From assembly GCA_963760675.1 (NCBI GenBank), contig CAVXEG010000015.1:110935-174934 (forward strand): DNA of 64,000 nucleotides, read 5' to 3'. The translations under genes and the position numbers were made by a program. The stretch comes from an uncultured Verrucomicrobiae bacterium. GTDB lineage: Bacteria; Verrucomicrobiota; Verrucomicrobiia; Limisphaerales; BOG-1460. Positions 14,815 to 64,000 of this stretch are shown piece after piece (within the stretch, counting starts at the first letter, position 1; each line of letters starts with the position of its first letter). The notes beneath the pieces were generated by a model. That model saw only the letters and a program-made list of their open reading frames with translations, did no database searches and was not told where the DNA came from.

Positions 14815-16206
14815 TTATTCAAAGCCAAGCCAGTCCAGTTCGACGTTGCCGTCGCTCCTCTGAGCAACAAAGAGATCATGCACGCCAGTCGGAGCGGTGG
14901 CGACCTTCGCATTCGCGACTTTCCAGTCAGAGCTTTTTCCAATCTCAACGGTTGCCGCCAATGGACCGTCCGGCTTGTCGAGATGGATTTCCACTGCTCC
15001 CCCGGTTGAAGACGCGGACCTGGCGTTCACAGATTTCAACGCGCTGTTTCCGAAATCAACCTTGTCAAAGCGAACCCAGGCGCTCTTCCCATTGAGAGCA
15101 ATTTTCCAGCCTTCAAACGTGTTTGAAGAATTGAGGAATGAAACGGACACATCGTTGGTCCCGCTGATTGCGCTGTAGCGGTCAATTTGAATTTTGCTCT
15201 TCGCATTCACAATCCCAACGCCGCGCAGAGTTGGAATGACTTTCTTGATCGTTCCGTCGTCATTGAAATACAAATAATCCGCGCGGATGGATCGGTTCTT
15301 GTCGAAGTTCGGGGACAAATCTTTGTCGTGATAGAACAGGTACCACTGCCCTTGTACTCCACCAGCGAATGATGCTCGGTCCAGCAATGGCTTTCGTTCT
15401 GGTCGGTGATGACTCCCGTCCAGGTGTACGGCCCCATCGCGTTGGTGGAAATTGAATACTCAAGCCGTTCAGACTCGAATCCCGCGTTGGTCACTGCGTG
15501 CGGATAGGTGAGGTAATAGATGCCGTTTCGTTTGAAGGCGAATGGACCTTCGATGAGTCCGGGTCGGGGAAGATTGGCAATGCGTTGCATGCGGTTTTCC
15601 CCTCCAAAACCGCGGCGCTGTGGAGCATTGGTGACGCCGGGCATCACTTCCAGTTCCACCATGTTGTCCTTCAGCTTGCCAACCATCAGGCCGCCGCCCC
15701 CGGTAAACAAGTAGGAGTTGCCATCATCGTCAATGAGCACGCACGGGATCAATCCCTCCGGCGCCCGTCACCGGCCGATCGAGGATCTTCCAGGGACCGG
15801 ATGGCTTCTCTGAAGTGGCAACCCCAATCCTGCCGCCAACGGGAAAATAGAAATAATAAGTGCCGTTTTTGAAAACGCAGTCCGGCGCCCACATGTCGTA
15901 GCCCTTGCGGTTGAGCCAGGGAACGTTCGTCTGATTGCAAATGACTCCGTGATCCGTCCAGTCCGTCAGGTTCTCGGAAGAGAACACATGATAGTCTTCC
16001 ATGCAGAACCAGTTGGCCCGCGCACCGCTGCCCGGAGGGACCGGAATATCGTGAGAAGGATAAACGTAAATCTTGCCTTCAAACACTCTGGCGGTCGGAT
16101 CGGCGGTAAATTGATCCATGATCAGCGGATTTGTGGCAAAGCTGTCGTTGGCGGAGAACACGCCCGCAAGGCTCAACGCCAGCAAATGAAACATGTGGCT
16201 CTTCAT
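14815..16206 (-). pseudogene. GH43 beta-xylosidase/alpha-L-arabinofuranosidase with C-terminal CBM6-like module, 2 frameshifts as assembled
   Basis: NPLIMDQFTADPTARVFEGKIYVYPSHD, MWAPDCVFKNGTYYFYFP, IDPCVLIDDDG, IEGPFAFKRNGIYYLTY and QWYLFYH are GH43 blades. The tail IQIDRYSAISG...VELDWLGFE is CBM6-like. Frame breaks at the G3 run 15745-15747 and at ~15370. Confidence 0.75.
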
Positions 16207-16221
16207 TTTTTTTCCTGTTGG

Positions 16222-16956
16222 TTACTTGGCGGCATCCAAATTCACAGTAAATCCCTTCAGCGGTTTGTCCGTCCTTGTCCAGAAATCGCGCGCAGAAGTC
16301 GCTGGCGCCGCTGCCATTGATAATCGCGCCGCGAATGATGTTCGGACCTTTCTTGAGGGTCAACGGCCGGGAAATCGCCGTCGTCAATCACTGTCAAGAT
16401 GTCCCCATAAATGCCCGCGACTTCCTTTCCGTTCACCCACCAGATGGAGGACGCGTTGGAGCCAATCGCCAGACGCACGCCGGGCATGTCCTGCGGGCAA
16501 TTGACTACGGTTACAGCCCAGAACAGTGCGCCGTCGGAAGTCTTGCCGTTGATGTAGGCAAAGTGGTTGAGGTTGACGTTGTAGTTGAGGGTGTCCACGG
16601 CGTGCCATGTCAGTTGGTTGCCCTCAACGGTTACTTTGTCACCATCCTTCGGAACGACCGTGAACTGGTCGGAAAAATAATTCGGTGTGCGCCGCCGCTT
16701 TGCTGGCATTCTCCCGTTGCTGGTCGCCAATGGCGATGGGCTCAAGAATCACCCACCGCGGGATGAACCCTTGAGCGTCGGGACTCGCTTCGGGGGAGGT
16801 CACGGGCTTGAGCGTGTTTTGGAAGGTGGGTGAGGGGCCGCTACCACGGGCACCCCGGCCGCCGCGGCCACCACGACCTTGCGCGGCAGCGTCAAACCCC
16901 GAAACTCCGGTCAACAGGGCCAGAGTGAAAGCTAAGAGGATGCGAGACTTGATCAT
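16222..16956 (-). pseudogene. hypothetical secreted protein with N-terminal GRGG repeats, at least 3 frameshifts as assembled
   Basis: Signal peptide MIKSRILLAFTLALLTGVSG followed by QGRGGRGGRGARG. The coding signal continues through ORFs 16639..17148, 16257..16745 and 16079..16387, and a final shift gives ...KPLKGFTVNLDAAK-stop at 16222. Confidence 0.45.
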
Positions 16957-17012
16957 AAAAGGAGTGGGCTGAGTTTGCGTTGTTCGCCGAAATCGCGTTT
17001 TCGCATGGGGGT

Positions 17013-18581
17013 TCACGGCATTTTGAACTGCCACCGGTTTTTGGGGCTGTTTGGATCGAACTTCGTGAGCGTCGCGGAACGGCCGCCGATCGCGCAAAGA
17101 GCCAGCGGTTCCATCCCGTCCGGCGCGGACTTCGGCATGATGCGCCACGTGCCGTCGGTAAGCTGATCCAAACGCCAGAGTTGTTCGGCTGCGCCAGTGA
17201 AGCTCGGCGCAGAAATCAATTCACCGTCCGCAGTAGCGGCGAGCGCGCGATCCGTTCCGGCGATGGTGATCTTGAAATAGGGCGAGCCGAGATAGCCGCC
17301 TGCGTTGGTGACTGCGGTAACGGTCCATTTCTGTTGGGCCTGCACCATGTAATTGCCCAAGCGAACGTCAATATTGCCTGAGGGCCAATTCGTCGAGACC
17401 TGCGCGACATCCTGCGCTGGAATCGGACCGCGGCCGCTGCCACCGAACAAGCCGCCTCCGCCGCCGAATCCTCTGCGCGCTCCTCGAGCGCCAGGCGCAT
17501 TGGTGTCGCTGTTCGCGCCGAGTAATGCCTGGCCTGCTGGGGCGTTGGTGTCAGCCGCCCCTCCCGGTCCGCCGCGTCCGCCGCGTCCGCCGAAACCTGC
17601 AGCGCCTCGGCCGCCGCCTCGTCGCCCGCCACCGACCGGCACGCCTTCCACGGCCAGTTCGAGCGCCGTGCCTGTGCGGACGGATTCGATTTGGTAGGTG
17701 CCCTCCTTCATGTTCTCGCCGGCCTCGGGCCAACCGTCTTTCCACAACAGTGGGCGGACATCGAGCACACTGGCTCCGCCCCGATCCAGATCGGCTTCCC
17801 AGTGCATGGAGAATTTCTGCACGCCATCGCCCAAGATCAATCAGACCGAAGTGTCCGGCGCCAACGACACGGCCGCTGGAGGTAATGAGCAGCTTGCCGC
17901 CGCCCTGAATCATGTTGATTCCCTCGTGATCGAGGAATGGACCGGTGGGCGCTTGGGAACGGCCGACGCGGATGTTGTAACCCGAGTCGGCGCCGCGACA
18001 ACAGCTCCCCTTAGTGCCCAGGAGATAGTACCAGCCGTCGTGATGAATCATCGTTGTTGCTTCGAGGTTGATGCCGATGTTCGTCGGGCGTTTGATCCGG
18101 GTGGAGCCGCTTCCCGCTCGTCGGATCGAGTTCGACCACTCGCGTGAAACCGTAGTAGGAGCCGTAGGTGAGCCAGAGCCGGCCAGTCGTGGGATCAAGG
18201 AAGGCGCCCGGATCAATGGGATTGATGAAATCGTCCGGGCCTTCATAACCGGCGATGCTGCCGCCGTCTTCCCATTTGTAGTCGGGGGAATTCGGGTCGA
18301 GGGTCTTGCTCCAAATCATCGTGACACCGGAAATGTACATGGTAGTAGCGGTCGCCGACGTGGATGACATCGGGCGCGGCGCCGCTCCGGGAGGCACGGG
18401 TCCCGGCTCGCCAGGTCCAGCCGTCATCCGACACGAGCGGCGTCCCGCCGGTTCCCCAAGTATAATATTTGCCGTCGCACAGCATGACCGTGGATGGATC
18501 ATGAATTCCGATCTGGCCATCCAAAGCCAAAACAGGCGAAGTCAGCGGCAGAATTGCTGCCAGGGTCAGTAGTAGTTTCAT
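17013..18581 (-). pseudogene. GH43 (arabinanase-like) with Gly/Arg-rich linker and C-terminal ricin-B (CBM13) lectin domain, 3 frameshifts as assembled
   Basis: MKLLLTLAAILPLTSPVLA signal. IHDPSTVMLCDGKYYTWGTG, LWLTYGSYYG and HHDGWYYLLG are GH43 blades. Three QxW repeats (QQKWTV, EQLWRL, KNRWQF). The pieces lie in ORFs 18243..18620, 18011..18520, 17551..18246 and 17013..17840. Confidence 0.7.
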
Positions 18582-18797
18582 AGGATTGTTCTGCTGGATT
18601 CCAAAAGGTTTAAATTTCAATCACTCTCCAGCCCGCTTCAGGATGGACTGGGAAGTATAACTGGTTCCGTCTGAAACGCTGAGCTAGTTAGGCGGCATGC
18701 CCGGAGAATTGCAACAAAAATCCAGTTGCCGCATGCGATGTGCGATGCAAGCGTGAACGAGCTTGCCCACGCTGAACAGCCCAGCTATATCACGAGG

Positions 18798-42019: not shown

Positions 42020-43492
42020 GTCAGTTGGTATTCGGGCGTGCACATGATCAATCGGATGGCGCCGCGAATATCGGACTCGTCGAGGTTCCCTTTCGAGTCC
42101 AGAAACTCGCGGAGTGCATCTTCCTGTTTGTCTTTGAGCTTCGCCTGCAGCATGCGTTTCTCGAGAGCGGTAATGAGCAATTCTTTGTCCGCGCGTTCCT
42201 GCTCTGTCAGGATTCTGTTCACGTCCACGCCACCGACGCGGAAATTTCGCAAGCGATTCTGAATTCGCATTCCCTGATTTGGACGCCGGACGTCACCCAA
42301 ACCGGCAAGCGCGGACAAATCCCCCTGCACCAGCGTCGCGGATTCATTATAGCGAGCGAGCAGCGTGTTCGTCGTAATCCACGCTAGACCGCCATCCCAG
42401 CCTTTGACATTCGGTGGCGCAAACAAGTCCTGGCCCAGACTGCGCACGAGCGCAGCGGAAGCAACTGGAGGAGGCAATTCGCATTCGAGCATCCGCGTAG
42501 TGCCCACGAGCCATTGGACCGGGCTCTTGATCTGCTGGCGAACGATGGAAGGCGCGTAGAATTCCTCGCTCAGAAACATTTTCCGCAGGAGCGGCTTGAA
42601 ATTGTTTCCGTCGGCCCGGAATTCACTCGCAAGCGCGGCGTTCAATTGCGCCGACGGTATTTCGCCGACGAAAAAGTTCCATAACCTGGCCGTGATGAAG
42701 ACGGCGGCCTGCGGTTGAGCGACGATGTGCTCGAGCACATCTTCGCCCGCCAGATCTGCCCGTGCGGCCGAGAAACACCTTGATTCCGTTATCGTGCCAC
42801 ATCGGGCGCGCGATGAATTTCTGTTCCTCGCGATTGAGCGACCAGCCTGTGAGCGCACGTGCCGCTTCGGTGACGTCCTTTTCGGTGTAATGCCCTTCGC
42901 CGAGCGCGAACAACTCCATCACTTCCCGCGCGAAATTCTCGTTGGGATGCTCCTTCCGGCTTTGGGCCTGGTCGAGCCAGATCAACATAGCCGGATCCTG
43001 GGCAACCTCGACGAGCATCTGGAGCCAGTTGCCCGTGGCAAGCCGTCGCAAGAGTTCATTCTGGCGCCACATGTAGTAAGCGTCCCGAACCTTCTCCGCG
43101 CTCGTGGCAAAATGCCCGTGCCAGAAGAGAGTCATTTTTTCCTGCAACGGACGCGTGCCTTTGACCATCCGCTGAAGCCACCAGCCGCGCAGCTCCATGA
43201 ATCGATCGCGCTGCAATTGCTGCTCGTCCTTCTGCATTTGCCGGCGCTGCTCTTCCGGAGCGGCGCGCATTGCCTCGATACGCTTCATCCTCTCCGGATC
43301 TGGCTTTGCCCAATCGGGATCGGCTGTGGGATCGGAAATCTTCTCGTAATCTACCAGCCAGGAAACTGCTTTCTCATGGCCGAGTGATAAAAGCTTTTCT
43401 ATTTCAGACGGCGGGCCGCCGAAACCCGCCCGGTTCAGGAGATGCGCCGCGTTCGCGAAAGTCCATCCGGCGGCGTTCAACGGCTTCAACAT
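42016..43492 (-). pseudogene. DUF1800 family protein, frameshift near 42762
   Basis: AAHLLNRAGFGGPPSEIE, LFWHGHFATS and TPEYQLT are DUF1800-like. ORFs 42623..43492 and 42016..42858 join as ...KVFLGRTG/DLAGEDVLEHIV. Confidence 0.75.
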
Positions 43493-43632
43493 ATATTCAA
43501 AGACGATGAGCTTTGATAAAAGGTTTCATTAACCATCAACATCCTCTCGGCATGCCGAACAGAGCCGCGTTTTTACTGAAAACCCCAGCACTTGCCCGAT
43601 GAAGCGCGAAGTTCGAATCGCTTCGCAGAACG

Positions 43633-46491
43633 TTAGCCTCTTGTCTCGGCTGTTTCCTCCCGTGACGGGAACTCAAATGTCACCTTGCCCGCGTCATCCA
43701 TGACGAGATACGCGGGAAATGGCTTGCCTGCCTTGGAAATGAATTTGTCGATCAGATCAGTCCGTTTCGTTTCGAGCAACTTGTGAGCCTGCTCGCGCTC
43801 GATGGGCCGCTGCAAAATGACTTTGCTGATCTTGAATTTGCAGGGCTTCTTCTCCGCCTGCGACCGTTCGCAAACGTAAGCGGAATCCGTTTCAAACACT
43901 TTTCCGCCGCATTTCGGACATTTGCCGACAGGTTGTTGGCCGGTGAAATCAATTTTCGGTTGCGGCTCCTTTGGTGCATCCTTCGGCTTTCGCTTTTCGC
44001 TCGCGCGGCGCGAACTCAAATCTGACCCCGCCGTCCTTCAGCGCGAGAAACGCCTCGAACTTGCGTCCCGTTTTCTTCGAGACGAACCTTTGAGCAAATC
44101 CGTTTTGCCTTCGCTGAGCAGCTTGGTGATCTGTGCCGGGTCGATCTCCTGCTGCAAAATGATTTTGCCGGTCCGGAAATCGCAGGTCTTGTCCGGACCG
44201 ACGGATTTCTCGCAGACGTAATTCATCCCGGCGTCGAAGACACGCGCGCCGCACTTCGGGCATTTGCCGAGCGGCTCCTTGCCGGTGAAATCCACCGGCG
44301 CGGCAGCCTCACCATTCTCCGCCTCCTTCTCCTTGCCGAAATCAAACTCGACTTTGAACTCGGGCGTGCAGCTTCAGCACGGCTGCGAACGGAAAGCCCT
44401 GCTTGCTGCGGAATCCTTGCAACGGCCCGATCTGCTTTTCGCTGATGAGCTTTTCGACTTCCTCAATTTCAAACATCCGGCCGCCAAGCGTTTTCCGGAG
44501 CGAGAAATCGCACTTCACGCATTGAAACTCCTTGTAGCTTCTCGTGGATTTCGCCGCCGCATTTCGGGCACGGCACATTCAGCACGCCGAAATCGCCGGG
44601 AATGGTGTCGTGTTCGAACTTCTTCGCGCGGTCACAATGTGCCGCGTCATGTCGGCGATCTCTGACATGAACTCATCGCGGCTCATCTGGCGGCGCTGCA
44701 TCTGGTGCAAGCTTGAATTCCCAATCGCCGGTCAGTTCCGGCTTGGTCAGTTCCGGAATGCCCAGTCCGTTCAGCAGTTCCATCAGCGAAAACGCCTTCG
44801 CCGTCGCCTGCAAGCTCGCGGCCGTTGCGAACCATGTATTGCTCGTAGATCAAACCTTCGATGATTGCCGCGCGCGTCGCCGGCGTGCCGAGGCCTTTCT
44901 CGCTCATCGCCTCGCGCAATTCGTCGTCCTCGACCAGCTTTGCCCGCGCCTTCCATCGCGCTGAGCAGCGTCGCTTCCGTGAAGCGCGGCGGCGGCTTGG
45001 TCTGGTTCTGCTTCACCTCGATCGCGCTGGTCTTCACGGTTTCGTTCGGCTGCACCGGCGCGAGGTTCGGCGTGTCGTCGGTCTGCGCTTCCTTGCCATA
45101 GACCGCCAGCCAGCCCGGCGTTCACCAGCACTTTGCCCGTGCTCTTGAACGGCTCGCCCTCGACGCGCGTGATGCGCGTGGTCTCCAGAAATTCCGCCGC
45201 CGGATAAAAAATCGCGAGGAACCGCTTCGTCGACCATGTCGTAAAGCTTCTGCTCCGGCTCGCTCAAGTCCTTTGGCGCGAGCGTCGTGGGAATGATGGC
45301 GAAGTGATCGGAAACTTTTGCGTTGTTGAAGATGCGCTTGTTCGGCTGGACCCAGTCGCTCTTCAAAATCGTATCGGCAGAAGCGTGTAGCGCGTGATGA
45401 AAGCGGTGCCGACCGACCCATGGCCCGCGAGCATCTCCAGAGTATTCTTTACCGTGCCGATGTAATCCTCCGGCAACGCGCGCGAGTCCGTGCGCGGATA
45501 GGTGAGCACCTTGTGCCTTTCGTAAAGCGCCTGCGCCAGGCCCAGCGTGTTCTTCGCGCTGAAACCCAAACCGCCCGTTCGCCTCGCGCTGCAAACTGGT
45601 CAAATCGTAAAGCAGCGGCGAGAGCGATGTGGTCGGCTTGCTTTCCTCGGTGACGATGCCGGGTTTGCCGAGGCATTTGTCGCGGATGGCTTCCGCGCGC
45701 TGGCATTTCCCAGACGCGCTCCGGCTTGAGTTGCGTCGTCGCCGTCCTTGTCCGGTTTCGAAAACTTCTCGTCAAACCAGCGCCCGGTGTATTCGCCCGC
45801 CGCGGCGTCGAACGTGCCGATGACTTCCCAATAATCGCGCGAGACGAACTTCTTAATCTTCTCCTCGCGCTCGACCACGAATGGCCAGCGTCGGCGTCTG
45901 CACGCGGCCCGACCGTCGTTTTGAAAAAGCCGCCGGACTTGGAGTTGAACGCCGTCATCGCGCGCGTGCCGTTGATGCCGACGAGCCAGTCGGCTTCCGA
46001 ACGGCTGACCGCGGCATCGGCCAGCGGCAGCATCGAAGCATCGTCGCGCAAGCGCTGCGAAGCCTTCGCGGATCGCGGCGGGCGTCATGGATTGCAGCCA
46101 GAGCCGTTTGATCGGCTGCTTGGCCTTCGTGTATTGGACGATGTTGCGGAAGATCAGTTCGCCTTCGCGGCCGGCGTCGCAGGCGTTGATCAGCGCGTCC
46201 ACGTCCTTCCGTTTGATGAGCTTCGCCAGGACTTTGAGCCGGCTCTCGCTTCTCTCGATCGGCTGGAGGTCAAAATGCGGCGGAATGACCGGCAGGCATT
46301 TGAACGTCCACTTGCCGCGCGCGGCCTCGACGCCTTCGGGCGGGATCGAGTTCGAGCAGATGGCCGACGGCCGACGAGAGCACGTATTGGTCGCTCTCGA
46401 AGTAGTCGTCCTGCTTCTTGAAACCGCCGAGCGCCTTGGCGATGTCGCTGGCGACGGACGGCTTCTCCGCAATGATCAATGCTTTGCCCAT
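43633..46491 (-). pseudogene. topB: DNA topoisomerase III-like type IA topoisomerase with three C-terminal zinc-ribbon repeats, at least 8 frame changes as assembled
   Basis: Toprim N-terminus MGKALIIAEKPSVASDIAKALGG, DAGREGELIF, and [16 protein letters not shown] (active-site Tyr region). C-terminal repeats CPKCGGKVF...CKFKISK / CPKCGARVF...CDFRTGK. The coding signal jumps among at least 9 listed ORFs. Confidence 0.75.
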
Positions 46492-46909
46492 TTTCTTTCC
46501 TTACACGATCTTCCCGGAAGGAAGCAATCTTTGTGCAAGTTGGCGGAAATTGGCGCAAAGCGTTTTAGAAGTCAAAAGGGAAAACAAATCCGCGCGATTC
46601 AGGTAGCAAACTCCTGATCAATTAAGATGCGTGTTCTGCTGGTGAGACCGTGAAGCATTATCGCGTTTTTCCAAGACAGTGCTCGCGGAGTCCTTTAGGC
46701 TTTCGCCTTAGCGATACGAATAAGGTCGCAACGCCAAAGCAGATAAACAAACAAGAGCCAATAAGTGCAGCCGACCCAGTTAGTGGTGCAGCCGCATTGT
46801 ACCTGTTGCGGAACTTCGCCCGTGAGTAAACCTCCCACTCCAATTAAATGGCAAGCAGTCCTATCCCGATTAGAAAAGTCCTCATTGACCTTACAGGTTC
46901 CGAACAATG

Positions 46910-53584: not shown

Positions 53585-54514
53585 TTACTGATTCAGCGCT
53601 TCCAAATACCGCTCGGCTTCGATCGCCGCTGCGCAGCCCATTCCGGCGGCAGTGACAGCCTGCCGATAAATGCGGTCCGCGCAGTCGCCCGCGACGAAAA
53701 CGCCGGGAATGTTTGTCGCCGCGCCTTTCTTCGGGATGATGTAACCAAGTTCGTCCATATCGATTGTTCCGCGAAAGAGCTGTGTGTTCGGCGTGTGGCC
53801 AATCGCCACGAACACTCCGGCGCAATCAATCGTGCTTTCGGCATTCGTCTTGAGGTTCTTGAGCCGGACTCCGGTCACCTTGTCCTGCTTCACGTCGAGC
53901 ACTTCCTCGATGACGGAATCCCAGACGGGTTTGATTTTCGGGTGCGCCAGCACGCGTTCGGCCATGATGCGTGATGCGCGCAACGCATCGCGGCGGTGAA
54001 TGAGATGAATCGCGGAACCGAACCGCGTCAGGTAGAGCGCTTCTTCACATGCGGAGTCGCCGCCACCGACAACGACGAGCGTTTTGTTGCGAAAGATCGG
54101 CAACGCGCCGTCACACGTGGCGCAGTACGTCACGCCCTTGTTCTCGAGCAGGTGTTCGCCCTGAACACCGAGATGACGATGGCTGGCGCCGGTAGCGATG
54201 ATCAGCGTTTGCGTTTGCACCGTCTCGCCATCGACGGTCAACAGAATTGGTTTGCCGGAAAGGTCCACGCCCTCCAGCGTGCCGAACTGGATGCGCGCGC
54301 CGAAGCGTTCGGCCTGTTTCTGCATGCGCGTCATCAATTCGTAGCCGTCCACGCCTTCGGGAAAGCCTGGAAAATTCTCGACTGTGCTGGTGGTGGTGAG
54401 CAGGCCTCCGGGCTGTTTGCCGGTCAGAACGAGTGGTTTCAGATTGGCGCGCGCGGTGTAGAGCGCGGCGGTCAAGCCCGCGCAACCCGTGCCGATGATG
54501 ACAACTTTTTCCAT
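53585..54514 (-). CDS. trxB: thioredoxin-disulfide reductase
   Basis: VVIIGTGCAGLTAALY, redox-active CATCDG, VVGGGDSACEEA, GVFVAGD. Confidence 0.9.
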   Translation of the reverse strand: MEKVVIIGTGCAGLTAALYTARANLKPLVLTGKQPGGLLTTTSTVENFPGFPEGVDGYELMTRMQKQAERFGARIQFGTLEGVDLSGKPILLTVDGETVQTQTLIIATGASHRHLGVQGEHLLENKGVTYCATCDGALPIFRNKTLVVVGGGDSACEEALYLTRFGSAIHLIHRRDALRASRIMAERVLAHPKIKPVWDSVIEEVLDVKQDKVTGVRLKNLKTNAESTIDCAGVFVAIGHTPNTQLFRGTIDMDELGYIIPKKGAATNIPGVFVAGDCADRIYRQAVTAAGMGCAAAIEAERYLEALNQ

Positions 54515-54730
54515 AGTCGGACGCGAAAGTAGTTTTGAAACCCGGCGTTGGCAAGTTTCGTGCCGCGGGCAGGAAACTGGCGTACGAGGCGTCCGCCAGA
54601 ACTCGTCAGGCGCGCGCAACTCGATTCAGTCCAAAAATCCGGGTGACGTTTTCTTGATCCGAACTTGTTGGCAAGTTGCTGCCGAGAACAGCCAGGTTGG
54701 TCTTCCATCCAGACAACTGAACCGCTGTCG

Positions 54731-55096
54731 CTAAGAGCCCCCGTTGCGGCGCTTGCGCCAGCGGCTTAATCGAAGAAAGAACATTCCGAAGAAGAACGCA
54801 CCACAGATGTTCACGCCAAGCGTGTAACCGAGTTTGTAAGTCAACCCGGTATTGTGCTGCGCGTAGATCACGACATCGTTACCCACGAGCAGATTTGGCC
54901 ATGCTGCGGGCATGAGTGCGCCCTGCAACAGGCCCTGAAAGAATCCAGCCTGACGATGGCTGCGGTCCAAGGCGGCGGAGAGTTGGTGCATCAACCATCC
55001 AACCACGAACATGGCCGCGAGCACCAACAGGATGCGCAACACGATTCTGCACACCGTTGCTGCAGGTGCCGAGACTTTGGCTTGAGTGGCGGACAT
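54731..55096 (-). CDS. hypothetical small membrane protein
   Basis: 121 aa with three hydrophobic segments. Divergent from the methyltransferase gene. Confidence 0.4.
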   Translation of the reverse strand: MSATQAKVSAPAATVCRIVLRILLVLAAMFVVGWLMHQLSAALDRSHRQAGFFQGLLQGALMPAAWPNLLVGNDVVIYAQHNTGLTYKLGYTLGVNICGAFFFGMFFLRLSRWRKRRNGGS

Positions 55097-55116
55097 CGTT
55101 TCCGTACAGCAAGAGC

Positions 55117-55812
55117 ATGTTTTTGAGCCGCCGCTCCACGCAAGCAGAATATTTTGACGCGCTGGATCGGGCCGAGGCGGAAATCATCGAATCCTACGAA
55201 TCGCTCGCAAGCATTAACCGGCTGTTTCTGTTCGCCGAACCGTTTCAGCGATTCGTGCCCAGACTTCTCGGACAGGGCCATTGCCGATCGCTTTCCATCC
55301 TTGACCTCGGCGCTGGAGATGGTTCGCTTGGAACGTTGCTTGCGGATTGGGCGGTGAACCAACATGGCTGGGTCTGGCAATTCACCAATCTCGATGCCAA
55401 TCCATCAGCGCTCCGTCGTGCTCGAGGCGAAACCAACATCGTCGGATCCGCACTCGCCCTGCCCTTTCGTGATACAAGCTTTGACCTGGTCATCTCTTCG
55501 CAAATGACGCACCACCTCACCAGCGATGAGAAAATCACTCGGCATTTTCGTGAAGCATGGAGAGTCGCACGCAAGGGAATTCTGTTTACCGACCTTCATC
55601 GCAATGTGTTTCTCTACGGCGCGCTCGATTTGTTTTTTCGGCTGCGGCGTTATCCAAAACATTTTCGTGATGACGCCTTACTGTCGGTCAGGCGCGGTTT
55701 CCGGATTGGCGAATTGCGCAGGCTGGCGGAACAGGCGGGCCTGACGGACGCCCGCGCTTGGCTTTATTTCGGCGCCCGGACAATTCTTGAGGCGAGGAAA
55801 TCCGGAACGTGA
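55117..55812 (+). CDS. class I SAM-dependent methyltransferase
   Basis: Motif I ILDLGAGDGSLG, with post-I and motif II (FDLVISSQMTHHL). Confidence 0.7.
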   Translation: MFLSRRSTQAEYFDALDRAEAEIIESYESLASINRLFLFAEPFQRFVPRLLGQGHCRSLSILDLGAGDGSLGTLLADWAVNQHGWVWQFTNLDANPSALRRARGETNIVGSALALPFRDTSFDLVISSQMTHHLTSDEKITRHFREAWRVARKGILFTDLHRNVFLYGALDLFFRLRRYPKHFRDDALLSVRRGFRIGELRRLAEQAGLTDARAWLYFGARTILEARKSGT

Positions 55813-56519
55813 CTTTGTGCCGTTTTCGGCGATAGACGGTCCGACTTCGCACCGCGTCGAGCGCGCAACCACCAATCGAACCAGCGTACCGTATCCTTGA
55901 ACGGGCGAATTTTGCTCCGCTCGTTGTTGTAAAGCACGCGAATGGGGACAAATTGAATTCCGAGTCCCGCGCGCGCAAAGGCGAGCAGCACTTCAGATTC
56001 AATCTGGAAATGCATTGCTGCGATTTCCAGTTGCGCCCATGCGTTCAAGTTCATGAGACGAAAGCCGCATTGGGAATCCGGAAGCGAGCAGCCGGCGAGA
56101 TTGGAGATTGATTTGCTCATCCAGCGATTCACAAACCGGCGAATCCGTGGTATTGACTCTGCGTCGTTCATCCGGTTTCCAACAACCAAATCGGTGCCGC
56201 GCCTCATGTTGTTCAGGAAAGCTGGAATATCCTCGGGCGAATGCTGGCCATCGCCGTCGAGTGAGAGCGCCCACTTAACACCGTGTTCATGGAGCCAACG
56301 CCAGCCGCTGATGAGCGCCGCCGCTTTGCCTTGCGGAGACGAGTGTTGAATAACTTCTGCGCCACGGGCTTTGGCGAGGGCAGCCGTGGCGTCAGTCGAG
56401 CCGTCGTCCACGACCAAAACCGTCAGCGCGTACCGCCGAATTGAGGCGACGAGATCCGATATCGTCGCAGCTTCGTCCAGGCAAGGGACGACTGCGGCAC
56501 AGTCGGCATCGGAAATCAT
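55764..56519 (-). CDS. family 2 glycosyltransferase
   Basis: AAVVPCLDEAATI, VLVVDDGSTD, LDGDGQH (DXD). Its 3' end overlaps the convergent methyltransferase gene by ~49 nt. Confidence 0.75.
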   Translation of the reverse strand: MISDADCAAVVPCLDEAATISDLVASIRRYALTVLVVDDGSTDATAALAKARGAEVIQHSSPQGKAAALISGWRWLHEHGVKWALSLDGDGQHSPEDIPAFLNNMRRGTDLVVGNRMNDAESIPRIRRFVNRWMSKSISNLAGCSLPDSQCGFRLMNLNAWAQLEIAAMHFQIESEVLLAFARAGLGIQFVPIRVLYNNERSKIRPFKDTVRWFDWWLRARRGAKSDRLSPKTAQSHVPDFLASRIVRAPK

Positions 56520-56647
56520 GACGCTGAGATTAGAAATGGCCCGATAGGAACCAAGCTTTTTCTGGAGTTTTGGGGTTTTCACCCCTGAAACGCACCGCGA
56601 AATTGATTTGCGCTACTGCCAATGTCCGTTCTATTTTTCCCGAATCA

Positions 56648-57688
56648 ATGACTGACCGCTTCACGCCGTCCGCCGAATTGCTTCGTTTGCGCGGAGAGCC
56701 GCAGAGGAACTTCCACGAAAGAGCCGCCGAGGCAGCAAAAGCCCGATTTGGCCAGAACGTATTTGTTCGCGCTGTGGTGGAAATCTCCAATTACTGCCGT
56801 GAGAATTGCTCCTACTGCGGCATGCGCCGGGATAATCGCAGCCTTTCCCGTTTTCGCGCGAATTGGGAAGAATTGGCCGAGCTCATCATATCTCATCGCC
56901 CTCCCAGCGTCACCGACGTGAACATTCAAGCCGGGGAGGATCCAATCGCAGTGCGGGAAGTCGTGCTGCCGCTCATTCGCTCGTTGCGACGCGAAACAGG
57001 ATTGGGAATCAGCGTCTGCCTCGGCTCATTGAGCACGGCACTTTACTCAGAATTAAGGGAAGCTGGAGCGAGCATTTACATATTGAAATTTGAAATCGCC
57101 AATCCGTCGCGTTACTCGGAATTTTGCGCGCCGGGAAAATTTGAAGAACGAATCGGAAACATCCGGCATCTGGCTGAAACAGGTTGGCGCGTAAGTTCTG
57201 GTTTTATCGCAGGATTGCCGGGACAAACTGAAAGTGACCTGCTCGAAAATCTTGTGCTGGCTCGCGAACTGCCGCTCGATGGTTGCAGCGTCAGCCCGTT
57301 CATTCCCGGCGACGAAACTCCTCTGGCCATGGCGCCCATGGCGGACATCGATGTGACGCTCAATTGCATGGCCACGCTGCGCCTGATGCAGCCCGACTGG
57401 GTCATCCCCTCAGTAAGCGCGTTGAACCTTGCGGAACCCGGAGCGGGCTATCGTCGCGGACTTCAAACTGGCGCGAACCTTGTCACCATCAACCTGACTC
57501 CACCGGACATCCGAACCAATTACGTCCTCTACAAACGCAATCGATTCATCATGACCGAGGAACGGATTCTCACTGCGATTACCGCCGAAGGGCGCGTTCC
57601 TTCGAAACAAAGCCTGGCGGAATTCTGGCGCAACAAGAAGCTCAACGGCGCGCACGTCGCGGCCGCGCAGGAGCCAGTCCGCGCCTGA
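56648..57688 (+). CDS. radical SAM enzyme, HydE/BioB-like
   Basis: The CX3CX2C motif in EISNYCRENCSYCGMRRDN, QAGEDP, GFIAGLPGQT and SPFIPGDETPLA are collinear with HydE as I remember it. Confidence 0.75.
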   Translation: MTDRFTPSAELLRLRGEPQRNFHERAAEAAKARFGQNVFVRAVVEISNYCRENCSYCGMRRDNRSLSRFRANWEELAELIISHRPPSVTDVNIQAGEDPIAVREVVLPLIRSLRRETGLGISVCLGSLSTALYSELREAGASIYILKFEIANPSRYSEFCAPGKFEERIGNIRHLAETGWRVSSGFIAGLPGQTESDLLENLVLARELPLDGCSVSPFIPGDETPLAMAPMADIDVTLNCMATLRLMQPDWVIPSVSALNLAEPGAGYRRGLQTGANLVTINLTPPDIRTNYVLYKRNRFIMTEERILTAITAEGRVPSKQSLAEFWRNKKLNGAHVAAAQEPVRA

Positions 57689-57706
57689 GCACGTCCCCTC
57701 CTGACA

Positions 57707-58054
57707 ATGTTTCGGCTCTCTGTAATCGGGTTTCTGATTGCGCTTGTCCAAAGCGCAACTGCTGCCGCATACGAAGCCACCAACCTCTGGGAAGATAACG
57801 TCGGTTACTACTACAGCGAGTCATCGCCGGCCGTGAATTCCGATGGGACGATCTATGTCGGAACATGGGACTGCAAATTTCTTTCGATCAGCTCCAATGG
57901 CTTGATTAATTGGAGTTACTCGACGGACGCTGACATCAGGTCGTCTCCGGCAATTGCTGCCGATGGGACCATTTACTTTGGCTGTCGCGACCGGCGGTTT
58001 TATGCGCTAACCGTCAAAGGAAAACTGAAATGGTCGATCACAACCGGCGGCTGA
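57707..58054 (+). pseudogene. PQQ-like beta-propeller repeat protein, truncated after ~2 blades at the junction
   Basis: Signal peptide plus the repeats SPAVNSDGTIYVG / [14 protein letters not shown] / KGKLKWS. The stop arises exactly where the foreign recD2 sequence begins. Confidence 0.55.
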
Positions 58055-58917
58055 GAGCCGTGCCCGACAAGAAGGCGGCGCTCTTGATCGTTGGTGACAT
58101 CGACCAGTTGCCATCGGTTGGGCCCGGGCAGGTGCTGGCGAAGGTCATCTCATCCGGCGCCGTGCCGGTGGTGCGCCTAACTGAGGTTTTCCGTCAGGCC
58201 GCGCAAAGCCGCATCATCACCAGCGCCCATCGGATCAATCAGGGTTCGATTCCTGATCTCCGTCCGCCCGCAGAGGACAGCGACTTCTACTTTGTGGAAG
58301 CGGAGAAAATCCCGAAGTCGCCGTGCCGCGTATTCTCGATCTGGTCAAGACACGGATTCCGAAGCGCTTCGGCTTCGATCCGATCCGCGACATCCAAGTG
58401 CTGTGTCCGATGAACCGTGGTGGTGTTGGCGCCCGCTCCCTCAATGTCGAACTGCAGGCCATATTGAACCCCGCCGGCGATCGCAAGGTCGAGCGCTTCG
58501 GTTGACGTCGCGCCCGGCGACAAGGTCATGCAGATCGAGAACGACTACGACAAGGAGGTCTATAACGGCGACATCGGCTACATCGATGACGTCAATCCTG
58601 ACGATGGCGAACTAACCGCGAGCTTTGATGGCCGGACCGTCACCTACGGGTTTGGCGAAGTTGACACCCCTGGTGCCGGCCTATGCCGCAACCATTCATA
58701 AGAGCCAGGGCTGCGAATACCCCCGCGTGCATAATACCCGTGATGACGCAGCATTACCCGATGCTGCAGCGAAACCTGCTCTACACCGGCGTCACGCGCG
58801 GCAAGAAGTTGGTCGTGCTGGTCGGGCGAGAAGAAAGCCGTCGCGATCGCCGTCCGGAACGTTTCAGGGCGACGGCGATGGTCGAAGCTGCAGGAGTGGC
58901 TGACGAAAAATCGATAA
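58050..58917 (+). pseudogene. recD2: RecD2-type helicase, 3' portion only, several frameshifts
   Basis: [75 protein letters not shown]. The N-terminal half is absent. The stop is at 58915-58917 after ...LQEWLTKNR. Confidence 0.7.
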
Positions 58918-59140
58918 ATCCGTGTCCGCTTTTCGGGTGCTGCGGAAGTCCAAGGCTGAATTGCCTCGGCGACTTCTGTCGCAAGTGACCCAAAGGCGAC
59001 GTGGGGCGGATGCAAAATGACCAACTACTGAGAGCGCGCAAAATCGCCACTCTGTTGCCCCCGAGAGACAGGCATCGGGCGTTCAGCATGGTATAGTGCC
59101 CAGGCTTTAAAGTCTGCTCCGGAGGTCGCACACGCCCAGA

Positions 59141-59982
59141 TCATAGCTTTCTCAACATGAGCCTTATGGACGCGAGACGCAGGAACGCGAGCGCCCTTCG
59201 ATTGAGATTTTCCCAATCCTTTGCGAGCCGTCTGCAACGCCCGAGCCATGCGAAGGTTCTTTCGACGACCCAGCGTTTTGGCAAGACGACAAAGCCTTTA
59301 GCTTGATCCGAGCGCTTGACGATTTCGACGTTCACGCGTGCCAGTATTTTCGTGACGGCGTCGCGGAACACCGGGCCTTGATAGCCGCCATCGGCGTAGA
59401 GTTTCAGCAAGAACGGATACAGGCCGAACATGGTCGCCATGACCAGTGCACCGCCATCGCGGTCCTGGATATCGGCGGCGTGCACGATGGCATGGATCAG
59501 CAGGCCTTGCGTGTCGACGAGAATATGCCGCTTCTTGCCCTTGATCTTCTTTCCCGCGTCGTAACCCGGCGGATCAATCGAGACCCCCCTTTTTCAGCGC
59601 TCTTCACGCTCTGGCTGTCGATCACCGCGGCAGTGGGACTCGCTTCTTTTGCAACGGCCTCGCGGCATTTCACATAGAGCTCGTGATGGATCAGATCGAG
59701 CGTGCCATCCCAACTCCATAGGTCGAAATAATCGTACAAGGTCGAGCGCGGCGGCAAGTCCTTCGGGATGGCCCGCCACTGACAGCCAGTCGACAGAATG
59801 TACATGAGGCCGTTCACCACCTCACGCATGATCACCGTGCGCTTGTCGCCGCCGCGCTTGCCCGGAGGGATCAAGGGCTCAACCAGACTCCATTCGTCGT
59901 CCGTCAAATCACTGGGATAGCGCAATCGGCTCCGGTCATAACGTCCGCGATTTTCGTTCGTCCACATCGGCGGCCCCTCCAA
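59141..59982 (-). CDS. IS5-family transposase in two overlapping frames (orfA 59497..59982, orfB 59141..~59590)
   Basis: LTDDEWSLVEPLIPP...STGCQWRAIP (DUF4096). YDAGKKIKGKKRHILVDTQG, YADGGYQG, VVERTFAWLGRCRRLAKDWE (DDE). orfB is in the -1 frame relative to orfA. Confidence 0.8.
59585..59595 (-). promoter_or_regulatory. possible -1 frameshift site (A5G6 on the coding strand) between transposase orfA and orfB
   Basis: The coding strand reads GCTGAAAAAGGGGGGTCTC exactly at the orfA/orfB overlap. In this error-prone region I cannot tell programmed slippage from a homopolymer length error. Confidence 0.3.
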
Positions 59983-60895
59983 ATCAGGCCGCCACCCTTA
60001 AATCACAAATAATTCATACGATTCAAGAACTCACCGGACAGACACTTAGGAGTGGGAAGACATGCGAAGTATTTTGGGGGCAAGTCTCGGTGCTGCACTT
60101 TTTTCCTCTGCCGCCATGGCTGCACCGCTTTACGTTTCTCCACCGCCCACCTGGACGGGGTTCTACGTCGGCGGCAATATCAGTCGGCTATAGCTGGGGC
60201 GAAGCTCACACCGATATTGCGGCCGACGTAGAACCCGTAGGTGGGCGGTGGAGAAGCGGTGCAGCCATGGCGGCAGAGGAAAAAAGTGGGCCAAAATACT
60301 TCGCATGTCTTCCACGCCTCAGTGTCTGTCCGGTGAGTTCTTGAATCGTATGATCCATTTGTAATTGCGAGGGTGGCGGCCTGAATTCGGAGGGGCCGCC
60401 GATGTGGACGAACGAAAATCGCGATTATCCCAGTGATTTGACGGACGACGAATGGAGTCTGGTTGAGCCCTTGATCCCTCCGGCAAGCGCGGCGGCGACA
60501 AGCGCACGGTGATGTGGTGCCGTTGAGGTTGTCGCCGCCGCGCTTGCCGGAGGGATCAAGGGCTCAACCAATTCCATTCGTCGTCCGTCAAATCACTGGG
60601 ATAGCGCAATCGGCTCCGGTCATAACGTCCGCGATTTTCGTTCGTCCACATCGGCGGCCCCTCCAAATCAGGCCGCCACCCTTAAATCACAAATAATTCA
60701 TAGAATTCAAGAACTCACCGGACAGACACTGAGGCGTGGGGGGAGAGACGTGAAGTATTTTGGGGGCAAGTCTCGGTGCTGCACTTTTTTCCTCTGCCGC
60801 CATGGCTGCACCGCTTTACGTTTCTCCACCGCCACCTGGACGGGGTTCTACGTCGGCGGCAATATCGGCTATAGCTGGGGCGAAGCTCACACCGA
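59828..60895. repeat. fold-back triplication (direct ~59828-60208, inverted ~60209-60512, direct ~60513-60895) of IS left end plus porin 5' end
   Basis: The same ~380-nt unit occurs three times in forward, reverse and forward orientation: the transposase 5' codons MWTNENR..., the IS terminus, and the porin start MRSILGASLGAALFSSAAMAAPLYVSPP. The inverted copy carries many small deletions and substitutions. Confidence 0.85.
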
Positions 60896-61625
60896 TGTGC
60901 GGGGATCGGGACCGCCACGAGTTCCTTGGCACTGCATACCCAACGAACTTCACCTTTGCCGGATCGAATTCATTCAGTTAAACGGGGCAATTGGTGGGGG
61001 CCAAATTGGGTACAATTTTCAACTGAACCGGAACTGGGTGGTGGGTATCGAAACCGACATTCAGGCCTCAGCTGAACGCGGAACCGGTTCATTTGTAAAC
61101 TCGTTCTCGACCCGTTCTGCACAGGGGCTGAAGCGACTTGTTTCTCAATCCAACCGCTCACCGGCACAGCGCTGACCAGCTATGAGGCCAAGATTGGCTG
61201 GTTCGGGACGCTTCGCGGTCGAGTGGGGTTCTTGCTAACTGATCATTTCTTAATCTATGGGACTGGCGGCCTAGCTTACGGGAATGTCCAGCTTTCGGGC
61301 GCAACTAATACCAACGCCACCACATTCGACATTTCTTGGCCTTCCCCTTCCCTTCGGTTCCAATGCAACAGCATTCAGTGTCTCTAGACGAATGTCGGGT
61401 ATTCAGTAGGCGTGGGTGCTGAGGGGTCTATTTGGCTTCCTCCGAGGTGGAGGTGGAAAGTAGAATATCTCTTTTAGACCTTGGGTCACTTGACGCTGCG
61501 CCAGCCTTCACGCTCGCCAGTCGCCTGGCTCCTTTTTCGCCTGTTACAGGCTCCATTGCGACGCATGCGCACTTCACCGACCAAATCCTGCGTATCGGTT
61601 TAAACTACGCATTTTGGGGCAATAA
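60750..61625 (+). pseudogene. outer-membrane beta-barrel porin (Omp25/RopB-like, Bradyrhizobiaceae type), multiple frameshifts
   Basis: WTGFYVGGNIGYSWGEAHTD, GAIGGGQIGYNFQLNRNWVVGIETDIQAS, SYEAKIGWFGTLRGRVGF, IYGTGGLAYGN, WKVEYL, HFTDQILRIGLNYAF. These are spread over 3 frames. The intact start codon is seen in the first repeat copy at 60062. The 3' end is approximate. Confidence 0.6.
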
Positions 61626-61751
61626 AGGGCTGCCGGCGGCGGCGACCATCGCTAAGTTCCGGACCTCGACGGTCCACCGAATACAATTATCGGGCGCGAG
61701 GTCTTCGACGCTGCGTCGTCACGCCCGGCCGCCTACCGCGAACGTCCGGAA

Positions 61752-61838
61752 GTGGCACTCCTCGCCAATTCGCCGCGCTGCAACGTGTCGTCTGCAGCTG
61801 AGGGCAGACCCGCCGTCATCGGCGTGACAGCGTGACGG
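61752..61838 (+). repeat. dispersed ~85-nt repeat, copy 1
   Basis: TGGCACTCCTCGCCAATTCGCCGCGCTGCAACG..GCAGCTGAGGGCAGACC matches 63814-63900 at roughly 80 percent identity by eye, in the same orientation. Confidence 0.7.
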
Positions 61839-61966
61839 GTTAGGATGAGCCGACCTCGCCTGCACGCCTACGGTTTCGACCACAAACGGCGACCGTGCGG
61901 CGTTTCACGACCGACGGGCTGAGCCAAGCCTCATACCGCGCCCACGCGCGACGGCGGCGCCATCAA

Positions 61967-63749
61967 CTATGTTTTGAAGCGCCCGGCCGTGCTGGTCGGC
62001 TCTGCCTGGCCGGGCGCGAGCAGGGGAAGTGTCATGCAAATGGTCGTGCCCTTTCCTAGCGCGGAGACGAGCGTGATTCTACCGCCGAGCTGTTGCGTCA
62101 CGAGATTATGGACGATGTAGAGGCCGAGGCCGGTACTGCCCTGCGCACGTCTCGTGGTGAAGAACGGATCGAAAACGTGACGCTGAACGTCCTCCGGAAT
62201 GCCGCTGCCATCATCCGAGAAAGTGATCTCGACCTGCTCCATGCCGAGGCGACGCGCCTTGATCAGCACGTGTCCACCAGGCCCATCGGTGAAGCCGTGA
62301 GTGACGGCGTTGAAGATGAGGTTGGTCAGCACCTGTCCGTAAGCGCCCGGGTAGCTGTCCAGGGTGATGTCGGAGGGCATCTCGAGCGCAAGTGAATCTC
62401 GAGATTTCGGCAGGCCCGGCCGCACACTGGCCACGATCTGCTCGGTCACAAGTTTGAGGTCAAAGGTGCGCCGATCGGTATGGCTGCGATCGACGGCGAC
62501 TTGCTTGAACGATTAAATCAGTTCTGTGGCGCGCTGGAGATTCGCGACGAGTTGGTTTGCACCGTCGCGACAACTGTCAGCGAACTCGGCGAGCAGGGAA
62601 CGGCGCACCGGACCCGAGGCGATCTGGTCGGCGAAGTTCGCGCAGCGGTGCGCGAGCGTCGAGGCCACCGTAAGGCTGATGCCGACCGGGCTATTGATCT
62701 CGTGTGCAACCCCCGCGACGAGACCGCCGAGTGCGGCGAGTCTCTCGGTTTCGATGAGATAGCGTTGCGTTTCGCTGGCGTGCAGAGCTGCTTCGGCCAA
62801 CCTCCTCTTGTCCCGGATTTCGGCAAACCGCGCAGCAAGAACCAATGCGCCGATCGTCACAAGTAGAATGCTGACTTGGGCCGCCAGGACGCGCTCGGCC
62901 ACTGGAAGACCCGGATTACCGAAATAGCCAATGCCAAAGGTGGTCGTCCAAACGATTGAAAGGCTAACGATGAACGCGGCTGCCGCGGCGAAAACCGGGC
63001 GGCAACGAGCCGCAAGCCACAACAGCGGCACGAACAACAAGGCGACCGGCCCAACGGTCGCCAAAAGCTCCGACCGTTGGAAAATGACAAGTCCACTCAC
63101 CAGGGCTAGCGCCGCGACCGCCAAAGCACCTTCGATCGAGCTCGCTCCGCGACGGCGGGTCGCGCGAGGATGAGACGAGCTCTATCAGCAACGGTGCAAC
63201 CGTGATTATTCCCAGTCCGTCCGATGCGAGCCAGTGCTGCCAAGTCGTCAATATCGGCGTCGTCGTACTGTGAAACAATTTGAATGCTACGGCCCCGCCG
63301 ATCCCCGAGACAGCGGCCCCTATGATCGCTGTCGCTGCCAATCCCAGCACGTTGCGCAGCTTGCTCAGTCTGAAATCCGAACCGAAGTAATGCCCAATGA
63401 GCCATGCCGTGAGCACGGCTTCCCCTGCATTGCATAAGGCGAAGAGAGCAGTGCTCCAGAGATTCCGGTCGCCCAAGAGATTCGCCACGATGGTCGCAGC
63501 CATCGTGCCGACAACAACCGGCCATCGCGCCCGGGACCCGAGAGCGATCAGAACGCCGGCGGACACACCTGCGGCGGGCCAGAAGACGGCGACACCCTCA
63601 GGTTTGGTCAGCAGAGCAAGGCTAAGCCGCGCTGCTACGAAATATACGATGCCGACCGCGACAGCGAGCCCGATCGAGCCAACCCACCGCGTCAGGTCGA
63701 TGCCGGTGGACAGCTCATGCTGAACCTGTTTTCGTAGATTCTGCCGCAC
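61967..63749 (-). pseudogene. MASE1-domain sensor histidine kinase, 2 or more frameshifts as assembled
   Basis: N-terminal multi-TM MASE1-like region (VYFVAARLSLALLTKPEGVAVFWPAAGV). H box LVAGVAHEINSPV. N/G boxes NLIFNAVTHG, DDGSGIP, GSTGLGLYIV. The pieces lie in ORFs 62964..63749, 62513..63124 and 61967..62449. Confidence 0.7.
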
Positions 63750-63813
63750 CCCGTGCTCCTTCCCCGCATGATCCTATTTCGCACAGGACTCGTGACGCCG
63801 CTACTCCCGCTAT

Positions 63814-63900
63814 TGGCACTCTTCGCCAATTCGCTGCGCTGCAACGGCGCGTCCGCAGCTGAGGGCAGACCGTCCGTGGCGGGCATGGCATCGTCACGGC
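63814..63900 (+). repeat. dispersed ~85-nt repeat, copy 2
   Basis: See copy 1. It lies just upstream of the histidine kinase start. Confidence 0.7.
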
Positions 63901-64000
63901 TGCCCGTGACCCGAAGGGGACATCCGGGCGGCCGCCCGATGCTCAATTGCGGGCCCTCAGACCGCTCTCTTGCCGTTGGGAAGAGCTACATGAGGCGGCG

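Follow-up and report, generated by a model that had tools for sequence, protein, structure and literature searches.

The stretch of DNA that was analysed, called the window in what follows, has a length of 64,000 nucleotides, and at base ~58,050 it switches in the middle of a gene from what reads as Verrucomicrobiota chromosome to alphaproteobacterial DNA of the Rhodoplanes/Bradyrhizobium type. To the left of this joint lie genes for a thioredoxin reductase (TrxB), a methyltransferase, a glycosyltransferase and a radical SAM protein, as well as the beginning of a beta-propeller gene, and to the right of it follow the end of a helicase gene, an insertion sequence, a porin and a sensor kinase. 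The coordinates are given in Table 1, together with two regions further to the left that are of use for judging the quality of the sequence.

Table 1 Features of the window that bear on the joint, in order of position, with the evidence for each
Feature	Position	Strand	Evidence
GH43/CBM6/ricin-lectin genes (left side), frameshift-broken	14815..18620	-	Pfam; ~11 frame switches
Topoisomerase I, topA (left side), colinear domains, many frames	43669..46500	-	Pfam; codon-model Viterbi path
TrxB, thioredoxin reductase, intact; left-side taxonomic anchor	53585..54514	-	MAG protein matches
Methyltransferase	54916..55812	+	Pfam Methyltransf_11/25; same position in relatives
Family-2 glycosyltransferase	55764..56582	-	Pfam Glycos_transf_2, E = 8e-21; syntenic in relatives
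Radical SAM protein, intact, last whole left-side gene	56570..57688	+	Pfam Radical_SAM
Beta-propeller, N-terminal 115 aa	57707..58054	+	Pfam PF13570; syntenic homolog alignment
Breakpoint	58049..58053	.	Zero spacer; possible microhomology of 2–4 nt (TG to GCTG)
RecD2-type helicase, C-terminal 283 aa	58051..58905	+	Pfam; frameshift-aware alignment; 5 frameshifting indels, no in-frame stop
IS5-family insertion sequence (DUF4096 + DDE transposase)	59142..60048	-	Pfam; nucleotide match
Forward-reverse-forward triplication, ~370 nt (IS5 end + porin 5' end)	59831..60896	.	Self-BLAST; alignment; inverted repeats
Outer-membrane beta-barrel porin, in at least three frames	60731..61830	+	Pfam OMP_b-brl, E = 1.3e-4, first piece
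MASE1 sensor histidine kinase	61967..63749	-	MAG and protein matches; two lesions

The genes on the left side have clear counterparts in related organisms. TrxB is 84–92% identical at the amino acid level to many MAG proteins, and ten of the 11 matches that name an organism are labelled Verrucomicrobia, Verrucomicrobiae or Verrucomicrobiota, the remaining one being Ca. Angelobacter. The latter is filed under Acidobacteriota by NCBI. Five related contigs share a gene order that begins with TrxB, a small protein, (the methyltransferase), a family-2 glycosyltransferase and a radical SAM protein, the last being 75% identical in amino acid sequence between the window and contig L086. The order then continues with a protein of 378–390 aa (in three of the five contigs), an FAD/halogenase-like protein and a protein of ~190 aa; the three closest long JGI relatives were compared through gene tables. 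The window conforms to this gene order as far as residue 115 of the propeller protein, and it is precisely at the joint that the Verrucomicrobial synteny is lost. No plasmid matched the left 8 kb in a search. The earlier note, which was made from the sequence alone, had called the content of this side typical of the PVC group and had pointed to a DUF1800/DUF1501 pair; two such pairs are in fact present, and TrxB and the synteny agree with this reading. Assignment of the left side to the Verrucomicrobiota (PVC phylum), as predicted from the TrxB matches, the local synteny and the two DUF1501/DUF1800 pairs, thus appears well supported.

The last open reading frame before the joint encodes a signal peptide and, after it, about two blades of the Beta-prop_ACSF4/PQQ type (Pfam PF13570, E = 1.2e-12). 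It terminates with ...KWSITTGG and a stop codon, whereas the propeller homologs P0002 and P0003 read on beyond that point (...KTGGWVDSS...). A syntenic homolog of 390 aa (L086:96-1268(-)) aligns to the window only with its residues 26–135, at 45–55% identity, and all its alignments to the window end at 58051. The description of PQQ-like blades that stop after about two is thereby sustained by the Pfam match and by the homologs that read further, and these comparisons confirm the predicted nature of the open reading frame as the first 115 residues of a beta-propeller protein of ~380–390 aa that is cut at the joint. The remaining ~255–275 residues of the propeller, as well as the genes expected downstream, are found nowhere in the window.

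From 58051 onward, and one base out of frame with respect to the propeller, the sequence matches positions 110–174 of the 191 positions of AAA_30, after which SH3_13 and UvrD_C_2 follow in the order expected for RecD2, spread over different frames (Pfam). In a frameshift-aware alignment the fragment corresponds to residues 441–722 of an annotated RecD-like helicase of Paracoccus (729 aa, 78% amino acid identity), and the N-terminal 440 residues are missing. The proposal that the middle of a RecD2 helicase follows directly on the joint, with its N-terminal half gone, therefore holds as far as alignment and domain order can tell, with the amendment that the fragment carries five frameshifts in 850 nt, three of which are located in homopolymer runs of three or four bases. 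For the breakpoint alignments, 80 reference loci were recovered, each with a whole recD2 gene. Their nucleotide alignments to the window start at positions 58047–58085, most of them at 58047–58057, and never cross the joint. The best nucleotide identity of the fragment, 88.6%, is to an alphaproteobacterial MAG locus (L005). MAGs assigned by their labels to several phyla contain homologs at 79–89% identity, including homologs at 79–84% amino acid identity in MAGs labelled Acidobacteriota and Dehalococcoidia. Since RecD2 is too conserved across labelled phyla, it was rejected as a taxonomic marker, and the taxonomy of the right side was built on the kinase, the IS5 element and composition.

At the breakpoint itself, the left-side homology extends to GGC-TG, at a Trp codon that is conserved in the homologs, and the RecD2 homology begins at (C)TGAGAGCC. 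The propeller homologs have this codon as GG-TGG where the window has GGC-TGA, and the RecD2 relatives have (A/C)TG-A(A/G)G-GCC at the corresponding place, so that a maximum of 2–4 bases could have been common to both parent DNAs. Both genes are severed inside domains, the propeller at residue 115 of ~390 and RecD2 from residue ~441 of ~729; Pfam matches and homolog alignments bear out what had been proposed in this respect. The earlier statement that the joint has no spacer, IS end or att-like repeat agrees with the repeat, tRNA and Rfam scans, in which no repeat, IS end, tRNA or Rfam element was detected at 58,050. No integrase or att-like feature was seen at the joint, and a test for a recombinase, a tRNA/att site or an IS terminus that would mark the boundary of an island there came out negative. 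The whole window is without a tRNA or Rfam match, the promoter/terminator scan gave no meaningful terminator at the joint, and the joint contains no Ns or gap filler. Self-BLAST and a repeat search of the window revealed no repeat or IS common to both sides; the IS nearest to the joint is the IS5 element, which begins 1.1 kb inside the foreign side.

An important part of the evidence on the right side comes from the sensor kinase. Its lesions are a 1-nt insertion (63137) and a CAA-to-TAA nonsense change (62510–62512). The nucleotide identity of the gene is 97.0% to an independent MAG contig (L093) and 92.8% to L090–L092, and the amino acid identity is 96% to a MAG protein, 94% to Rhodoplanes sp. 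MAGs, 88% to Xanthobacteraceae and 85–86% to cultured Bradyrhizobium. The IS5 element is 84% identical in nucleotide sequence to an IS5 copy on a plasmid of Bradyrhizobium sp. Ash2021. According to NCBI taxonomy, both Rhodoplanes and Bradyrhizobium are within the Nitrobacteraceae. From the kinase, the IS5 element and tetranucleotide usage, it appears well supported that the right side would stem from a member of the Hyphomicrobiales/Nitrobacteraceae. Earlier, this side had been described as typical of Bradyrhizobiaceae, which is right with respect to the family to which Bradyrhizobium belongs, but the kinase identities place Rhodoplanes/Xanthobacteraceae-type organisms closest among the named relatives and Bradyrhizobium proper further off.

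Some further observations on these genes can be added. The best match of the kinase carries a Burkholderiaceae label, and searching with the N-terminus of the kinase yielded no protein match. The kinase locus of three related assemblies is located at contig ends, where it adjoins a repeat of ~100 nt. Beyond the first piece of the porin, the remaining pieces had no Pfam match. Synteny of RecD2, porin and kinase was found neither in the 80 reference loci nor in the three kinase-bearing contigs.

The two sides also differ in composition. The correlation of tetranucleotide usage between the right and the left side (r = 0.887) is below that of all 53 left windows of equal size (0.891–0.969). With the alphaproteobacterial centroid, the right side has a correlation of 0.962, as compared to a maximum of 0.924 for the left windows and a median of 0.95 for alphaproteobacterial fragments. 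The left side has a GC content of 57.5% and the right side one of 59.5%, which means that the suggestion of a GC-richer right side was correct in direction, although the gap is only 2 points. The proposal to classify both sides separately by tetranucleotides and taxonomy thus led to a clear outcome: the two sides differ, with the switch at 58049–58053. That the DNA of the window would have two origins appears well supported by these comparisons.

The quality of the sequence is important for interpreting the damaged genes. In topA, the Toprim, Topoisom_bac and Toprim_Crpt domains are present in the right order across at least six ORFs (Pfam), with ~17 frame switches along the codon-model Viterbi path. 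In the glycoside hydrolase region of Table 1, GH43 positions 2–125, GH43 positions 124–250 and CBM_6 lie on three overlapping ORFs, and the left side has two more split genes, another GH43 and a DUF1800 gene. Because topA is an essential single-copy gene and is nevertheless broken in ~17 places, the frameshifts on both sides are best regarded as sequencing or consensus errors, and the assembly is demonstrably error-prone, long-read-like and of patchy quality. The idea that the right-side frameshifts reflect pseudogene decay or uniquely low coverage was dropped, since the native topA, GH43 and DUF1800 genes are equally or even more densely broken. Poor quality of the right side alone is no marker of foreignness; frameshift density on the left is patchy too.

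A different irregularity is the triplication on the right side. Its copies run forward (59831–60215), inverted (to 60513) and forward again (60524–60896), with hairpin turnarounds near 60197 and 60515, and the inverted copy has clean multi-base deletions of 24, 16 and 7 nt. This fold-back arrangement is present on the foreign side only, the left 58 kb being without any repeat. Fold-back triplications are products of template switching or unsupported assembler duplications.

An indication of the age of the cut was obtained from the substitutions that fall on the branch of the window itself, polarised with the nearest relative and outgroups. On this branch, RecD2 has 16 nonsynonymous and 18 synonymous substitutions and the kinase 12 and 14, against a neutral expectation of 71–75% nonsynonymous (combined binomial P = 2.7e-5), with the caveat that the counts are small and that some of the changes may be sequencing errors. 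The ratios are not different from those of the sister branches, and the window-branch substitutions of RecD2 and the kinase gave no sign of the relaxed selection or decay expected of a truncated, non-functional cargo gene. No selection can act on a RecD2 protein from which the first 440 residues are missing. Since the RecD2 substitutions nevertheless look selected, the cut would have to be very recent or artificial. This fits a recD2 gene that was whole and working until essentially the time of sampling, and a joint that is an artefact or at most the result of an extremely recent event.

We consider it most likely, with a probability of about 0.87, that the joint at ~58,050 is a technical chimera and not a biological feature. 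A Verrucomicrobiota segment (1–58,050) and a Rhodoplanes/Bradyrhizobium-type segment (58,051–64,000), from different cells in the same sample, would have become linked at the stage of library preparation, sequencing or assembly. The likeliest route would be a long molecule or read that was chimeric or arose by template switching, and which the assembler may then have used for contig extension. That no cell ever contained the join is inferred, as is the technical route; the two origins, the cut in the middle of both genes, the broken synteny and the error-prone sequence are shown. The preference for a chimera over a real transfer is supported, short of proof, and is due to the mid-domain cuts without a mobile-element boundary, the synteny break, the right-side genes that look selected, the error-prone contig and the triplication on the foreign side. 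The earlier note had likewise judged a chimera far more likely than inter-phylum transfer, for which the mid-domain cuts, the break in synteny, the quality of the contig and the switch in composition and taxonomy provide support. It had also named binning as a possible cause. However, the join sits inside a single contig, and since a binning error cannot make a join within one contig, the fault must be sought at the level of reads or assembly.

The main biological alternative is a real and very recent inter-phylum transfer, in which at least 6 kb of Nitrobacteraceae-type (Rhodoplanes/Bradyrhizobium-type) DNA, starting inside recD2, entered the propeller gene of a Verrucomicrobium from soil through illegitimate recombination mediated by microhomology, with the rest of the propeller gene being deleted or displaced. 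The transfer would have been caught so early that the cargo retains 97% identity to donor-type sequences and has undergone no decay apart from sequencing noise. We regard such an event as improbable, even though illegitimate recombination yields just such a clean join, and a possible microhomology of 2–4 nt is equally compatible with this process in vivo. The foreign segment contains an IS5 element and repeats, as would be expected if it came from a region rich in mobile DNA, and with a contig of 190,426 bp and a window of 64 kb, the foreign piece does not have to form the end of the contig. Against this stands that an integrase, a tRNA, an att site and an IS end are all absent at the boundary, and that within the 6 kb from 58051 to 64000 neither host DNA nor the remaining part of the propeller gene resumes. 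Non-homologous DNA is captured only extremely rarely when neither side provides a homologous anchor. Furthermore, the right-side DNA is not ameliorated, with a fully donor-like composition and a kinase gene 97% identical to donor-type contigs, and in view of the purifying selection on the window branch the transfer would have to be extremely recent. The disabling lesions of the right-side genes, namely frameshifts and a single nonsense codon, could speak for a transfer, but these resemble the lesions in the native essential topA gene of the same contig and are thus better explained as technical. A related genome with the same adjacency had been named in the earlier note as evidence that would speak against a chimera. 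A junction 40-mer gave 0 matches in GTDB species representatives and in 241 million JGI metagenome records, and a 24-mer gave 0 matches in the same JGI records, so the junction is absent from two public collections. The power of these searches is limited and the absence is slight evidence, since these collections have few close relatives of the left side, the nearest being only 92% identical in TrxB. That the window would represent one genome of a single origin, with a native Verrucomicrobial right side that only looks alphaproteobacterial due to database mislabelling, has a negligible chance of being correct. Database labels are indeed partly unreliable, as illustrated by the Burkholderiaceae label on the best kinase match and by the RecD2 homologs at 79–84% identity in supposed Acidobacteriota and Dehalococcoidia. 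Nevertheless, the kinase is 85–86% identical to proteins of cultured Bradyrhizobium isolates, the IS5 element has its 84% identical copy on a Bradyrhizobium plasmid, and the tetranucleotide usage of the right side is outside the left range and inside the alphaproteobacterial range. The kinase, IS5 and tetranucleotide evidence effectively refutes a single origin, which would also leave the mid-domain cuts and the synteny break unexplained.

Within the technical explanation, it is conceivable that no chimeric molecule was involved and that the assembler alone linked contig ends of different organisms, through its graph, by scaffolding or by gap filling. For long-read metagenome assemblers, contigs that mix phyla, false duplications and sequence without the support of any read have been reported (bioRxiv 10.1101/2025.04.22.649783), and the location of the kinase locus at contig ends beside a ~100-nt repeat in three related assemblies shows that the region is hard to assemble. 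However, the joint is without Ns or gap filler, and beyond 2–4 nt it offers nothing in common that could confuse an overlap or k-mer graph. Such an assembler-only mis-join is therefore a possible but less likely route, and we slightly prefer a read that is chimeric or template-switched. The fold-back triplication and the dense indels on the foreign side, which are typical of a poorly supported long-read consensus, also argue for the latter.

If the contig is left unflagged, ~6 kb or more of alphaproteobacterial genes (a helicase fragment, IS5, a porin and a sensor kinase) would remain in a Verrucomicrobial bin, and the join would mimic a transfer between phyla and give rise to false pseudogenes. 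The gene calls of the assembly need care in any case, due to the dense patches of frameshifts in native genes, including the essential topA. The value of the finding thus lies in quality control, and its biological interest is low. Were the junction real, it would offer a rare snapshot of a fresh inter-phylum capture of DNA without mobile-element machinery, which the evidence makes unlikely.

It is useful to compare the joint with known types of junctions. A genomic island or an illegitimately captured segment also places foreign, compositionally distinct DNA with an IS beside native genes and may interrupt a native gene. In contrast to an island, the boundary in the window lacks an integrase, a tRNA, an att site and an IS end, and the foreign gene that borders on it is likewise cut in mid-domain. 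Moreover, there is no second boundary within 58051–64000 of the 190,426-bp contig, amelioration is absent, and the substitution pattern is that of working genes. Chimeras that arise in libraries or during amplification include ligation chimeras, template switching by strand displacement (MDA) and fold-back reads. By analogy, the window may be likened to these, with its spacerless junction, a microhomology of a few bases, and an inverted triplication with short hairpin loops 2 kb away. It differs from them in that the inverted copy has clean deletions of 24, 16 and 7 nt and no diffuse raw-read noise.

Long-read metagenome assemblers are known to produce multi-phylum chimeric contigs, false duplications and indels that are unsupported by any read, and shifts in GC, coverage and gene taxonomy are diagnostic signs of such contigs (bioRxiv 10.1101/2025.04.22.649783). 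Unlike the contigs of that study, which were defined by clipping and coverage, the window is known from its sequence alone; the GC shift is 2 points, and the signal comes from tetranucleotides and gene-level taxonomy rather than from GC. The likeness is nevertheless considerable, since the window combines an abrupt switch in taxonomy and composition with ORF-breaking indels and with duplications or repeats, as do the multi-phylum chimeric contigs described there.

The kinase gene on the alphaproteobacterial right side of the window is flanked on both sides by a direct repeat (see the table), and the same element of about 100 nt is found at L090:2175-2274 and at the ends of L091 and L092, which are contigs of other assemblies carrying homologs of this kinase. 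In three related assemblies, the contigs stop at or beside this element, each with different flanking genes, which suggests that it is a dispersed repeat that breaks assemblies.

The kinase gene itself carries an in-frame TAA at codon 412 (62510-62512, minus strand), where both relatives have CAA, as well as a single 1-nt insertion at 63137. Apart from these two differences, it is 97% identical to its counterpart on L093, the contig that encodes the closest kinase homolog (P0126, 96% amino acid identity). L093 is a 2.5-kb contig of GCA_054339195.1, a MAG labelled as Burkholderiaceae. It is probably mis-binned there, because every other named kinase match is of a Nitrobacteraceae or Xanthobacteraceae type.

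The end of the IS5 element and the start of the porin gene are caught up in a triplication with hairpin turnarounds close to 60197 and 60515, and with clean deletions of 24, 16 and 7 nt in the inverted copy. Either this structure arose as an artefact of template switching or of the assembler, or it is an unusual inverted triplication.

Disrupted reading frames also occur on the verrucomicrobial left side, and the frame switches are much denser in the topoisomerase I gene than in the adjacent genes. Mixed strains merged into one consensus over a conserved gene may explain this density, as may a patch that was left unpolished. On the left side, tetranucleotide usage is least typical in the 15-22 kb region, which correlates at 0.89 with the left side itself and at 0.90-0.92 with the alphaproteobacterial centroid.

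Features of the window with repeats or disrupted frames
Feature	Position	Strand	Description
GH43/CBM6 gene, second GH43 gene with ricin lectin domain, DUF1800 gene	14815-18620 and 42016-43525	-	all frameshift-split
Topoisomerase I gene	43669-46500	-	domains colinear, spread over at least 6 ORFs, about 17 frame switches
Triplication, forward-reverse-forward, about 370 nt	59831-60896		IS5 end and porin 5' end
Direct repeat, about 100 nt, on both sides of kinase gene	61746-61853 and 63807-63914		two copies 76-81% identical

The left side ends (53585-58054) within a gene cluster that is conserved in Verrucomicrobia. Taking the window and its relatives together, the cluster comprises the genes for TrxB, for a small membrane protein, for a methyltransferase, a GT2 glycosyltransferase and a radical SAM protein, for a secreted beta-propeller with multiple blades, and for an FAD/halogenase-like protein; in two relatives, a KAS/ACP/ketoreductase set comes next. 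The cluster may serve in lipid or natural-product modification.

Homologs of the alphaproteobacterial-type RecD2, at 79-84% amino acid identity, were also encountered on megabase contigs of MAGs labelled as Acidobacteriota, and in MAGs labelled as Dehalococcoidia and Holophagae (reference loci L045, L047, L052, L073, L074, L078 and L083). This likeness across labelled phyla could stem from unusual conservation, from transfer, or from mislabelled or chimeric MAGs.
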